This document shows positions 16,215 to 59,600 of a stretch of 64,000 nucleotides of DNA, piece by piece. The DNA lies in NCBI GenBank assembly GCA_040389865.1, contig JAZJZM010000007.1, forward strand, positions 195,271-259,270, in the 5' to 3' direction. Position 1 is the stretch's first letter; the number at the start of each line of letters is the position of its first letter. Below the pieces are notes generated by a model. The model saw nothing but the letters and a program-made list of their open reading frames with translations, ran no database searches and was not told where the DNA came from. A program made the position numbers and the translations under genes. This DNA comes from Bacteroidota bacterium (GTDB lineage: Bacteria > Bacteroidota > Bacteroidia > 2-12-FULL-35-15).

Positions 16215-16345
16215 TAAAACTGGCGTCCCCTAATGCCATCCCGAACTTTTTGTGATCCGGCAGTACTGCGGGATTGTTGTTTACGAATGATACCGCTAAC
16301 CACTTACAAGCCCCCTCTTGGCGAAAAGACAATCGGGATGACATT
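16215..16345. repeat. Degenerate copy of family-1 palindromic intergenic repeat (GC-rich island CCCGAAC...CCGGCAGTACTGCGGG...CGAAAAGACAATCGGGATGAC)
   Basis: Segments align to copy at 47110-47225 (CCCGAAC, GCGGGCAGTATCG, CTCGAAAAGCTCGGGATGAC); followed by hairpin GTGAATAAA-AGTGGTCG-TTTATTCAC at 16346-16371. Confidence 0.4.
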
Positions 16346-16617
16346 GTGAATAAAAGTGGTCGTTTATTCACAAATTTTAAAATTAACGTAATGATAGAAT
16401 TAATTCTGAATAAAAATTAAACAGGATATAAAAGCAATTAAATTCCACATATTTCCATAATATCCAACCTTTCGATAGCTTTCTGAAGCAATATTTCTAT
16501 TTTTGCAAATACTTTTATAAATGAGTAGATGCAACTAATTTTTGAAGAAAGACATCTTACTACCATTGCGAAGAACACAATGTTTCCAATGATTTTTATT
16601 AAAAAAAACAGCAAGGC

Positions 16618-19600
16618 ATGAAAAGATTGCTGCTATTAATTTTTCTTTTCGTAAATTATTACTCCTCGGGCCAGGGTAATATGATCTCTATTTCCAGTAC
16701 CGTGCCAGCTAATATAACTGTTTGCGGAGCAGCCAAACTTTTTACTGTTAGTATATATAACCCTTCCCCCTTTTTAATTACAAAAGATACCTTATTAATA
16801 ACAGTGCCAACCGGTATCCAATTTGTATCGGGATCGCTTACCGGGGGAATATTTTTGAATGATTTTGGAGGAATCATAAAAGTTTTTTTACCAAACATTC
16901 CTGCACTAACAAACCTAAACATTACATATATGGCCAGTGCTCAATGTACTGTTGTGGCGTTTATTGCAGGAGGAGGAATAACAAAAAATAATATTCGTGT
17001 TAATTATACCGCTAATAATAATCACACGTATAATACCCATAACAGCTCTCTTTTTCTTGTAAAGCAGCCGTTTCTTACCATCACTACTGTTACCAATCAA
17101 TCGTATACCGCAAATATTGGAGATGTTTTTACACGTTGCATCACGGTTGTGAATGCGGGTTCTGGCGACCTTACCGACTTTACATTTACAGATATTCATG
17201 GGCCTGGAATACAAATAACAGCCACCAATAAAGGGGTGTTGACCAATTTTGGAATGACTGCAAAAGTTACATTGAACGGGACTACTTTTTTGGGTATTGG
17301 TGATGGGGATAATTTATTTGAAAGTGGTGAGAGCGTTACCATCTGTGAAACAGTAAATGTGCTTAATTGTATTTCCGCGTCATCGGCATTTAAAGCGTTT
17401 TGGGGCTGTAGTGTTAATGCCTGCCAATCCTCAGTTTCCAGCGCTAACGTACTTTTTCCTAATTACCTTCCTATTTTATTGATTACCCCAATTTCTTCCA
17501 TGAATTCCTGCATTGGTGCAGGAAATGCCAGTCCGCAGCAATTGAAAATTATTAATAAAGGTTTAGGAAATGCGGTAAATGTTCAGTTGGAGATCTTTCA
17601 GGCAACAGGTGGGGGATATAATGGTAATGTTGGTTCAAACATAGACGCGGCCAGCTTCACCATTCAAACAGGTATTAATGCAACACCGGCATCAATTACC
17701 CCCAATAGTACTGTGGCTACTAATGCCTTAGGATGTATGACCAACCCTAAAGGGAAGGTCCTTTTTATTCTCCCTCTTATCCCTGCGGGAGATACTATTT
17801 ATCTGAAATGGAACAGCTACAGTTGTTGCCCCAATTCCTGCACAAACACTGGGCAAAATTATATTAACGGCTGGAGGTATAAAGGTACTTATCAGAACAT
17901 CTGCCAAAGTACTTATGTAATAGCGGAAGCATGGGGAAGGGTATATTCACAACTTTATGGTGCATTGGTAAATGATGGCTCTCCATCCACCTTAACCAAC
18001 GGGCAAACCGGTACTTTTAATTTTTTGTTTTCCAACTACACTAACTCTTATCCTGTGGGACCGGGAGCGTATTGGAAATTTGAATTTACCTTACCTCCTT
18101 TCGCCTGTTTATCGTATTCCAATATACGGATCGTACATTTTAATGGAACAAGCACCTGGACACCAAACTCTGTGACTGGTTCGGGGAACATGGTTACCGC
18201 TATTTTTAATGCACCACCACCCTTCGGGCTTAACCAGGCTGAATTAAAGATCAACCTTACTTTAAATTGCGGCCTTTGCACAGGAATTGATAGTTTAAGC
18301 GCTATTGCTGTCAAATCAATTTATGTCCCAAATAATACGTGTGCCTGCGAAATAGGTGTTTCTTGCCAAAGTGCAGCCTTAAGTGTTATTTGTCCGGATC
18401 CTTGTCCTGCCGGTGTATTTTTCAATAATTTTGAAATAAAACGCACCAGTTATGGATTACCCGACAATGAAGCAGGTGGAGGAAATGGCCTTGCTGATGG
18501 GGCTGGCAGTTTGAATTTTGCAAAAATTAAAACCAACAGGTGTATGTTTGGCGATACCATTACAGCTGCCTATACGGGAATAGTTAATACCAACTTTGCA
18601 CATCCATCCTTGCAATATTGTTATGCCTCTTCTTCAATAAGCAATGGTAATCTGTTAAGTTTTCTTGATGCGAAATTATTTATTTACAGAGGAGGGGCAT
18701 TGTTTGCTACCTGCACCAGTTTTACGCCTGTGGTAACTACATCGGGTACTACCCGGACTTTTTTATATGACCTTAGTGCACCAACTTTAATTGCCAGCGG
18801 ATGCGTGCCCGGAGGATTTACAAATACAAATGGCGATTCCCTGATATTTAAACCCCGCTATAAGCTCACTGTTAATCCTGGAAATGCGATCTTGAATTGT
18901 TATGCCACCAATAAGTTTTATTCCAGTGATATCGCTACGCCAACATTAGCAGCGGACAAATATCAATGCAGCAATTTTAATGGAAATTTTACCGCAATAG
19001 GATATTTTTTTAACTCCCATGGATCTGATAGCTATTATGTAAATTCCTGTGATAATATTTCCGTTTCACAAAATTATTACCTGAGTATTGGTCCAGGTGA
19101 CGACAATTATGCCGGAGGGAATTTATTTCCTTACGAATACAGAAACTGGGCCCATATTTCTAAGTTAACAGCAACGGTACCTCCCGGATACACTTATATC
19201 TCGGCACGTTTCAACCAGATCAGAACTGCCGGAACACTTGCTTCCAATACATCTCCATGGGAACCAATAGTACCGGTAAATCCTAATGCGGATACACTTG
19301 TTTTTGATGTAGAACCTTATTTTCAGGGAACGATTCCCTTAAGCGATGATGGTTTTCATGGGAAATTGGAAGTGCTCATTCAGCCCAGCTGTGAGGTTAC
19401 ACCCACTATATCTCAGGGAATACAGTACGATTGGACCTTTCAACCTAACACTTATTTAACCGGTCCCGGCAGCGATACAACATTTGAAACCGGCTCAGAT
19501 CGAATTATTTACGATCCGCCTGTTTTATTTTTACAGTCGGTATTACCGTCTATTTTTGCCCTTGATTCCACTACAAGCTGGGACATTAGCATCTCCAATA

Positions 19601-59162: not shown

Positions 59163-59191
59163 AAATAACAATAGCATTATTTTATTGATCC

Positions 59192-59238
59192 GATTGTTGC
59201 TAAAAGTATTCTGATGTTTTTAGCAACAATCGTTTTTT
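59192..59238 (+). terminator. Intrinsic terminator (GATTGTTGCTAAAA-GTATTCTGATG-TTTTTAGCAACAATC + TTTTTT)
   Basis: 15-bp perfect stem followed by T6. Confidence 0.85.
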
Positions 59239-59600
59239 CATTCGTTGGAACTCGATCATCACTTCAATATTCCAATAATTAATTATTTTCAATTTTTCAT
59301 ACCAACTCCATTTAAAAATAAACAGCAAATATATTCTTGTTGATATAGATCACCCGCAATTTATTTATCCAATGAGGTAAATCATTTCAAAATACTTTAA
59401 TGAAGCCTTTCTTTGTCTATATATAAAGACAAACCACTTGAAAACCAGATTTTTTTTAATCCTTCTTTTTTCGCTGAGCTGTTATTTGTCAAATGCTGGT
59501 GTAATCCTTTTTTAAAAAGCTGACGCGCAGGGTAAGGCCAAATACTTTTTAATAAAAATATTTTACATAAAACTTAAACAGGCTCTTAATATAAAATCGA

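Follow-up and report, generated by a model that had tools for sequence, protein, structure and literature searches.

Of the short palindromic repeats described in bacteria, the repetitive extragenic palindromes (REPs) and their doublets (REPINs), especially the CGTC-tagged REPs, appear to be the closest kind to the repeats reported here, which are set beside the CGTC families by description only. CGTC REPs, in which CGTC is often TGTC and the stems almost invariably start with AT, occur in Bacteroidetes, Chlorobi, Spirochaetes and Proteobacteria, mostly as inverted dimers that are often heterodimers; they include dRS3 of Neisseria and RPE-4 and RPE-6 of Rickettsia, no dedicated transposase adjoins them, and their mobiliser was left open by Di Nocera et al. 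2013 (PMC3733652). Among the tyrosine transposases that go with REPs (RAYTs), subclass 2.6 of Bacteroidetes reportedly has 'atypical secondary structures' at its flanks (PMC6006769), and a link between this subclass and our repeats is possible. The repeats lie in a 64,000-nt stretch (the window) of contig JAZJZM010000007.1 (positions 195,271 to 259,270; GenBank assembly GCA_040389865.1) from a Bacteroidota bacterium, where a first reading of the sequence (the original prediction) had grouped them as 'family 1', one dense family of REP-like repeats or transposable elements of the miniature inverted-repeat kind (MITEs). We consider it probable that 'family 1' is non-autonomous mobile DNA, made up of several MITE-like composite palindromes around one or two REP-like hairpin modules.

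Repeat units in the window

The repeats share a hairpin module (the unit) of about 30 nt (27-33 nt), which on one strand reads 5′-(GTC/GAG)AT-nn-Y, then the loop TCGACARGCTC, then R-nn-RTGAC-3′. Its core, YTCGAMARGCTC-N4-TGAC, was found 9 times at 6 intergenic loci of the window. A search with the pattern YTCGAMARGCTCNNNNTGAC, allowing up to 2 mismatches, gave 9 matches compared with 0.02 +/- 0.14 in dinucleotide shuffles, of which 0/100 reached 9, and the same 9 units were recovered at E<0.05, with filters off, by a covariance model (R1) trained on sequences of other organisms only. The similarity of the copies, as well as their palindromic, non-coding, intergenic and REP/MITE-like nature, was borne out. 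The core matches to this pattern are as follows.

24687 (+) and 24716 (-), core matches of the 24.7-kb locus, both arms present
37109 (+), core match of the 37.1-kb locus, single arm only
43373 (+), core match of the 43.4-kb locus, both arms present
44636 (-) and 44682 (+), core matches of the 44.6-kb locus, both arms present
47204 (+), core match of the 47.2-kb locus, single arm only
54351 (+) and 54381 (-), core matches of the 54.4-kb locus, both arms present

The list of copies in the original prediction stands for 6 loci with an intact core, whereas the copies at 16215 and 51104 are degenerate or partial relatives, and the 'degenerate copy' near 59500-59600 has no core and consists only of an 18-nt end fragment, TTAAACAGGCTCTTAATA.

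The window has a G+C content of 37.1%, and the listed copies are G+C-richer islands in its intergenic spacers. Such AT-poor islands in a 37% G+C genome are what chance or compositional look-alikes would also present, be they unrelated gene-end hairpins or translated micro-open reading frames. The shuffles argue against this explanation, as do a reversed-pattern control, which gave single matches only, the occurrence of the same 20-mer with covarying stems in hundreds of foreign loci, and the presence of units in either orientation and in every reading frame; we regard coincidence as having a negligible probability.

The genes of the window are ordinary chromosomal ones, among them those for CysRS, MoaA, a histidine kinase/Hpt/response regulator cluster, a TrhO-like rhodanese, MscL, OmpA and a TonB receptor. 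Eight repeat loci were placed relative to these genes and all are intergenic; 6 of the 8 lie 3′ of a gene, some of them at 0-7 nt from the stop codon, whereas 16215 and 47110 lie between divergent genes, so that the statement that nearly all copies sit immediately 3′ of genes is correct for 6/8 loci. The terminator function that had also been suggested was not supported. No copy has a T-tract, and no composite was called by a terminator scan, which called 46075-46102, 52021-52050 and 53093-53121 instead; the orientation of units relative to transcription shows no bias (47:43), and the orthologous genes of sister genomes do without copies. Without T-tracts and orientation bias the terminator reading fails.

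Composite elements

The units are embedded in larger palindromes, and these do not form the one family that had been proposed. At least three MITE-like composite palindromes (~75-180 bp) are present, which differ in their terminal inverted repeats, have one hairpin module in common and carry no gene. They are listed together with their partial and degenerate relatives; bit scores and E values are those of the covariance model.

24653..24774, element A, composite palindrome of 122 nt bounded by CATTGCGGTTTAGTTAAG / CTTAACTAAACGACATTG as terminal inverted repeats, with an inverted unit doublet in the middle (fold -69.4 kcal/mol, z -6.4)
24677..24709 (+), unit in element A, CATATT / TCGACAGGCTC / AATATG followed by AC, 6 stem pairs (37.2 bits, E 3e-6)
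24713..24745 (-), partner unit in element A, with the differing stem AGTC/GACT, forming a heterodimer (27.4 bits, E 5e-4)
24643..24652 (left, CAGGAGAGGA) and 24775-24784 (right, CAGGGGAGGA), possible target-site duplication of element A, 9/10 identical
37099..37185 (+), partial element B, one unit (37099-37131) and a right arm ending ATTGCCTAATT (29 bits, E 2e-4)
43313..43477, element C, composite, an insertion of ~165 nt bounded by GTTTAAATTT / AAATTTAAAC as terminal inverted repeats
43363..43395 (+), unit in element C, loop TCGATAGGCTC (30.3 bits, E 1e-4)
43403-43430 (-), partner unit in element C, with the variant 12-nt loop TCGACTTCGCTC
44582..44757, element B, composite of 176 nt bounded by GAATTAGGCAAT / ATTGCCTAATT as terminal inverted repeats, with an inverted unit doublet in the middle (fold -68.8 kcal/mol, z -7.75)
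44633..44665 (-), unit in element B, GTGAC type, ACCC/GGGT stem (30.3 bits, E 1e-4)
44672..44704 (+), unit in element B, ATGAC type, CATAC/GTATG stem (41.4 bits, E 4e-7), the top match of the window
44569..44581 (left) and 44758-44770 (right), 13-bp target-site duplication of element B, TAATAAGTTGATT
47110..47226 (+), element D, nested, with a unit at 47194-47226, loop TCGAAAAGCTC, stem ATCCC/GGGAT (22.9 bits, E 0.005)
16215..16421 (+), degenerate relative of element D, GCCATCCCGAAC ... AATCGGGATGACA, no intact core
51101..51170 (+), partial element B, left half, arm GTCACCTGGAGCC with a different inserted hairpin
54346..54410, minimal inverted doublet of units 54346-54368 (+, E 0.037) and 54378-54410 (-, E 0.017), enclosed by CACAATTTT / AAAATTGTG (fold -42.4 kcal/mol, z -10.4)
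59574..59591 (+), element-C-like end fragment of 18 nt, 100% identical to 43460-43477, no model match

The assignment of the partial copies rests on alignments within the window. The 37.1-kb copy has 88% identity to 44681-44714 and matches the terminal inverted repeat of element B at 37165-37185, and at 51101-51124 a terminal inverted repeat of 24 nt is 100% identical to 44580-44603, a degenerate arm lying in 51104-51225. The 16215 region aligned with 47105-47240, and its segment 16305-16345 reached a model E of 2.9 only. Nesting is a general feature, with small hairpins inside unit loops and with units or whole composites between the arms of other hairpins: the two arms of an AT-rich hairpin (AAATAGATTTA / TAAATCTATTT) enclose the 37099..37185 copy, and element D has a degenerate opposite arm, GTCCTCCCGAAC (~47127-47138), with other hairpin modules inserted between its arms.

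In being 120-180 bp long, intergenic and non-coding and in having terminal inverted repeats, the composites resemble bacterial MITEs such as Correia/NEMIS, ERIC and the MITEs of P. gingivalis, as they do in their target-site duplications (13 and 10 bp) and presence/absence polymorphism. Element B has MITE ends, a duplication and an empty site, whereas elements A and C have inverted repeats and uncertain duplications, that of element C being a possible 5-bp repeat, AAACT (43313-17 and 43478-82). Two features are unlike MITEs: three composites with unrelated ends have the same internal hairpin module, and in most foreign loci (276/432 core matches) the module stands alone.

Comparison with sister genomes

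Syntenic loci were taken from sister metagenome-assembled genomes (MAGs), with nucleotide identities of 84-95% where measured; the sister genomes include GCA_040384245.1, GCA_040384165.1 and GCA_030654175.1 (L406). In five of the loci (L226, L227, L229, L230 and L231) the response regulator has 81-86% protein identity to that of the window. The spacer between the response regulator and rhodanese genes is 313 nt long in the window versus 96-125 nt in sister loci, and that between the histidine kinase and Hpt genes is 190 nt versus 26-37 nt in orthologous loci (L226, L229, L230 and L231). Alignment revealed that element B is a clean insertion in the former spacer, with the 13-bp duplication TAATAAGTTGATT, the left copy of which includes the stop codon of the response regulator; the element is absent from L226, L227, L229 and L230, and the orthologous loci have a single target copy, TTAATAAGCTGAAAT, that matches the reconstructed empty site. 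Likewise, element C is a clean insertion of ~165 nt right behind the stop codon of the histidine kinase. The suspected recent activity was thus confirmed by two clean insertions relative to 4-5 syntenic orthologous loci, one of them with a 13-bp target-site duplication.

Element A is missing in three sister genomes (L404, L405 and L406), but no clean empty site was obtained for it because the spacer is unalignable among the sisters. For the 54.3-kb doublet no empty site was found either, the fetched homologues of its flanking DUF3078 gene being non-syntenic on that side, where a radical-SAM gene stands in place of MscL. A reciprocal case was seen in L405, the closest sister (90-95% nucleotide identity), which has a 415-nt insertion between moaA and a heptosyltransferase gene, at a position unoccupied in the window; this insertion holds a homologue of 16305-16421 of the window plus a unit, CACATATTTCGACAGGCTCAATATGAA, near-identical to 24680-24706, and this unit is the only one present in ~114 kb of sister sequence. 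The 16215..16421 element has 77% identity to L405 13559-13686, at a different locus.

Copies were also found farther afield. Element A occurs in another Bacteroidia MAG (L197) with 89% identity and unrelated flanks, and element B in a metagenome contig (L236), again with unrelated flanks and with a 10-bp direct repeat around it. In three copies a Logan de Bruijn contig from the same sample is cut off (ending at 24689, starting at 44705 and ending at 51130), as would be expected of multi-copy sequence. These results show that the elements were inserted and lost on the time scale separating sisters of 84-95% nucleotide identity, and that at least one composite family makes a target duplication of 10-13 bp.

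Element D is within a 1.4-kb variable region that L226 lacks; besides element D, this hot spot (45956-47370), between the rhodanese gene and a gene for a 95-aa product, contains small genes on the minus strand, of which two have TRL domains, and in the sisters it is occupied by AbiEii and DUF7149 genes in one case (L230 3687-5846) and by nothing in another. Compared with L405, which has 85 nt there, 14408-16457 is an insertion of ~2 kb comprising a repeat block rich in G+C (14415-14675), one hypothetical gene, a HigB/HigA toxin-antitoxin pair and, behind these, the degenerate element 16215-16421. In L406 the whole histidine kinase/Hpt/response regulator cluster is missing relative to 35.5-44.8 kb of the window, and the rhodanese gene is directly behind the I69 inhibitor gene.

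Structural constraint on the hairpin

The three base pairs adjacent to the loop vary freely yet stay complementary, while the 11-nt loop and the TGAC tag are invariant, ATGAC being fixed by the search pattern. In real matches from viral contigs the bases 5′ of TCGA are complementary to NNN-AT 3′ of GCTC, and the number of stem pairs is bimodal, with at least 4/5 pairs in 70/102 matches and at most 2 in 27. The stemless matches are mostly inside open reading frames (ORFs), and are therefore taken as chance coding matches; their number fits the 38 matches of the reversed-pattern control. Among 150 unfiltered units from 150 loci, one per locus, compensatory double changes were counted in 113 cells, compared with 35.9 +/- 4.5 in shuffles (0/500) and 35-75 in slid controls, and each of the three free pairs uses three or four Watson-Crick pair types. 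The base adjacent to the tag is A in 62-71% of units, with T-A and A-T pairs at stem positions 8-26 and 7-27. The hairpin module is thus under structural constraint.

The inverted doublets give a second line of evidence. In 1.76 Mb of fetched loci, 50/58 of them are heterodimers with two different self-complementary stems, typically one ATGAC-type and one GTGAC-type unit, and therefore what is kept is the hairpin of the unit and not the long palindrome alone. Of 42 mismatches at stem pair 7-27, 37 are G.T, a hint that folding takes place on the TTCGAC...ATGAC strand. The other strand, by contrast, has loop ends that read Y-GA-R on both sides, followed by a G-C pair. A Y-GA-R context is known to form stable tandem sheared G.A pairs in DNA and RNA, and the G.A, A.G and G-C positions of the loop may pair on that strand, which would give 8 pairs and a 5-nt loop.

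With this structure in hand the unit can be placed among REPs. Like a REP it is a short extragenic imperfect palindrome with a fixed tag at one foot, non-autonomous and dispersed at a high local density (9 times in 64 kb), and like REPINs its inverted doublets (58 in 1.76 Mb, four in the window) make a larger hairpin; the pairing of two unit types in a doublet recalls the Y/Z REPs of the bacterial interspersed mosaic elements (BIMEs) of E. coli. It differs from REP/REPIN in its foot, GTCAT / ATGAC or GAGAT without GTAG/GTGG, and in a long, invariant loop where REPs have loops of 2-5 nt, and its stems vary within one genome. As in CGTC REPs, the complementary strand has (T)GTC, a stem starting with A-T and a tail, and units form inverted dimers, often heterodimers, without an adjoining transposase. 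CGTC REPs, however, have a stem of 8-9 bp, a loop of 4-5 nt and a CCA tail, whereas the unit has 5 Watson-Crick pairs, an invariant non-complementary stretch of 11 nt and a CTC tail or none; the unit would agree with CGTC families 2-4 (8 pairs and a 5-nt loop) only if its G.A, A.G and G-C are counted as pairs.

A loop that is invariant across phyla, on a covarying stem, is also what one would see in protein-binding RNA hairpins, and the unit could be a host-functional RNA element (one that stabilises 3′ ends of mRNA, marks a processing site or couples translation, bound by a conserved factor) that mobile elements carry as cargo. Most copies lying just 3′ of genes, G.T as nearly the sole tolerated mismatch at one stem pair, and units within the co-transcribed late operons of Mu-like phages would all fit such a role, as would a related palindrome inside the Rfam small RNA (sRNA) family RF02901. 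This family (AaHKsRNA41, Aggregatibacter sRNA 41) was the only Rfam match (36 bits, E 3e-6; gathering score 97); its consensus has a palindrome, CUGAgCUUGcCGAAG...UUCGgCAAGcUCAg, with nearly the same core, but the palindrome alone matches, its loop has GGCAAG where the unit has GACAAG, and the Rfam consensus is without the unit-level stem. The lack of orientation bias relative to transcription speaks against an RNA element, as do sister orthologues without elements, the absence of T-tracts and of any Rfam family at threshold, and the position of the copies 16215 and 47110 in divergent promoter regions. On balance, we think an RNA function quite unlikely to be the explanation.

At the gathering threshold, the Rfam scan of the window gave tRNA-Met only, and at E<=10 no ribozyme or riboswitch family besides the weak RF02901 match. 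Other ideas were rejected: the motifs are at odds with the cores of hammerhead and other small ribozymes, the resemblance to the T-loop or D-loop of tRNA or to the 5′ region of tmRNA extends over 6-9 nt only, the loop is unlike known nick sites of rolling-circle Rep hairpins, and the R′/R′′ motifs of integron attC sites are absent.

Distribution of the unit

Confinement to the window, which would have spoken against a mobile family, was not observed, since copies were found in other genomes, viral contigs and plasmids. A scan of viral contigs for YTCGAYARGCTCNNNATGAC gave 104 stretches, compared with 38 single matches for the reversed-pattern control, and a scan of genomes gave at least 120 stretches, with stem-bearing units in at least 15 phyla and carrier loci ranging from 30% to 71% G+C. 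Among the matches listed, Bacteroidota carriers were Pedobacter, Hymenobacter, Flavobacteriaceae, Chitinophagaceae and Bacteroidales; others in the same list were Ignavibacteria, Chlorobi, Calditrichota, Verrucomicrobiota, Kiritimatiellia, Victivallales, Spirochaetota, Eremiobacterota, Chloroflexota, Nitrospirota, Acidobacteriota, Armatimonadota, several Patescibacteria lineages, Marinimicrobia and Margulisbacteria. In PLSDB, units were found on replicons (chromids and plasmids) from cultured Hymenobacter (16 records), Variovorax, Comamonas, Novosphingobium, Methylobacterium, Rhizobium and the cyanobacteria Planktothrix and Gloeothece, and almost every match was in an unannotated spacer. This range, which takes in the candidate phyla radiation (CPR), Eremiobacterota, Chloroflexota, Verrucomicrobiota and phage-like contigs, is far wider than that of CGTC REPs.

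Mu-like phages account for 14 of the viral stretches, with the unit at varying gene junctions of the morphogenesis operon; no match was found in the cultured phage genomes of INPHARED. In the Mu-like contigs L030, L035, L048, L057, L079, L002 and L017 the units are exactly at late-operon junctions, either between the portal and Mu-F genes or just ahead of the large terminase gene, and the hairpin of one group has its end 1 nt ahead of a GGAGG ribosome-binding site.

The loop itself has relatives. In viral contigs the variant TCGCTTCGCTC is no rarer than the loop above and follows the same stem logic, and fetched loci contain further variants (TCGACTAAGCTC, TCGCTGCGCTC) as well as nested loops. 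The module therefore belongs to a superfamily, defined by a stem, TCG-N4-5-GCTC and RTGAC, that extends across many phyla, plasmids and phage-like contigs.

In foreign loci, 149 stem-bearing units (~79%) are intergenic and 39 are in permissively called ORFs; the flanking genes are in tandem in 90 cases, convergent in 29 and divergent in 16. The 432 core matches in 1.76 Mb comprise 276 singletons, 58 inverted-doublet pairs and 29 in tandem. Some loci have head-to-tail arrays of units with a 26- or 44-nt period, or only of the 3′ half, GCTCAGGATGACA; the array carriers are L122, L146 and L140 (Eremiobacterota, Acidobacteriota), L215 (Massilibacteroides vaginae) and the viral contig L079. Apparently, the 3′ half of the unit can duplicate on its own.

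REPs and BIMEs of E. coli bind gyrase, IHF and Pol I. By analogy, the units could be double-stranded DNA or cruciform sites for a conserved nucleoid or replication protein, kept for chromosome structure, for which one can cite the BIME-like Y/Z design of the heterodimeric inverted doublets, the independence of the units from transcription orientation and their presence on chromosomes, chromids and plasmids alike. We find this very unlikely, considering the patchy occurrence (almost none in the ~114 kb of sister genomes), the variable stems, which speak against sequence-specific recognition of double-stranded DNA, the units in phage-like contigs and the directly evidenced insertion with target duplication.

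A broader possibility is that the ~30-nt hairpin is a pan-bacterial structured motif whose loop, TCG-N4-5-GCTC, is read by one deeply conserved factor. Such a factor could be a nucleic-acid-binding protein universal to hosts or else a widespread enzyme acting on single-stranded DNA, which would be the 'missing transposase' of CGTC-type REPs; the motif would then spread as a nano-element, with hairpin tips as landing sites and with unrelated MITEs, plasmids and temperate phages as vehicles. We regard this possibility as unlikely.

Mobilisation of the elements

Under the reading that we prefer, that of non-autonomous mobile DNA, enzymes whose genes lie elsewhere in the genome would move the composites in trans, and the hairpin would be recognised in single-stranded DNA by such an enzyme or by a conserved host factor, as REPs are by RAYTs. 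Units and small hairpins may land preferentially in or next to existing palindromes, which would produce the nested, concentric architecture, and effects of the 3′-end hairpins on neighbouring genes would be side effects. Our confidence in the identity of any specific mobilising enzyme is much lower than in this reading as a whole.

The search for an enzyme covered the window and the fetched loci. No transposase, integrase or HUH nuclease is among the genes of the window, and, unlike in REP/RAYT systems, no RAYT flanks the units in the window or in the fetched loci. Searches with phmmer, using IS608 TnpA and E. coli RayT queries, gave no match in the fetched loci, and a motif regular expression found one RAYT-like gene and one IS200 TnpA (L350), neither adjoining units. 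The end sequences GAATTAGGCAAT, CATTGYSGTTTAGTTAAG and GTTTAAATTT are available for comparison with a parent insertion sequence (IS); a metagenome scan for the terminal inverted repeat gave 8 places, one of which was element B and none an IS.

Several observations weigh against the preferred reading. No Y1-HUH gene adjoins units in ~1.8 Mb of fetched loci, and clustering of ORFs of at least 100 aa near units revealed no recurrent non-phage protein, only phage morphogenesis and common housekeeping families. The RAYT-like gene (NHVH...WQ...YIERNP; L333 1170-1817, minus strand), on a viral contig, has on both flanks a different, canonical GTGG-tagged REP, GGCGCAGGCTTCCAGCCTG. REPs normally co-evolve with a lineage-specific RAYT, and the invariance of the loop across phyla is unusual for them. 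No insertion polymorphism of a lone unit was seen; near-identical viral contigs were 100% identical, so that there is no unit polymorphism among them. Taken singly, the unit hairpins in the window have a low stability (-1.7 to -2.7 kcal/mol as DNA, no better than shuffles), and in the composites the long arm-to-arm hairpin dominates energetically over them. The lengths of the target duplications differ between composites (13, 10, ~10 and possibly 5 bp). Finally, terminal inverted repeats and target duplications, which set the composites apart from RAYT-moved REPs, point to cut-and-paste transposition of the DDE type. Y1-HUH transposition makes neither of these, and DDE-type movement needs no internal hairpin, so that any role of the hairpin in movement is putative. 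Two layers are therefore possible, namely MITEs into which a REP-like nano-element has spread or which make use of it.

Other repeats and genes of the window

Three tandem paralogous giant proteins (2370, 2311 and 2664 aa) with PKD repeats and a CHU_C end are encoded at 13-7125, 7479-14414 and 16618-24612; they have 60-77% mutual identity in 300-nt blocks, and each sister genome has two or three of them. Behind the first giant gene, 7130-7298 holds small palindromic repeats, CCACGAATTTCACGAAT with its inverse and AACCTGACAGGTTTTGAAAACCTGTTAGGTT, which we take to resemble repeat types common in Bacteroidota. Another repeat family was found at 26222-26465, an insertion of ~218 nt relative to L405 (26 nt there), with GCCCCAGCGGGCAAA, GCCCCAGTGGGGCGAAATATT and the inverted pair TTTGTAGAA / TTCTACAAA. 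A ParE toxin gene and a small upstream gene (29499-30080) are present in the window and L404, not in L405 and L406. The gene for tRNA-Met (CAT) at 51939-52012, inside which a Logan contig of the same sample starts, is directly followed by a perfect 26-nt palindrome (52021-52050) called as a bidirectional terminator.

Significance of the repeats

The kind of element is ordinary (REP/MITE-like), but the hairpin module is unusually conserved and widespread, and no description of it was found in the open-access literature: full-text string searches with the core, its RNA spelling, the loop variant and the encoded peptides returned unrelated primers only, and keyword searches general REP and MITE papers only. 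Repeats of this kind break short-read assemblies and would seed spurious small ORFs in many phyla, and a covariance model of the unit would clean up annotation. One loop kept from Bacteroidota to CPR, Proteobacteria and phage-like contigs, on a stem that drifts through compensatory change, implies that a recognising factor is very widely shared or that an element of 30 nt is often spread horizontally. As cultured Hymenobacter, Pedobacter and Variovorax carry the sharply defined motif, the question of what mobilises CGTC-type REPs becomes testable.

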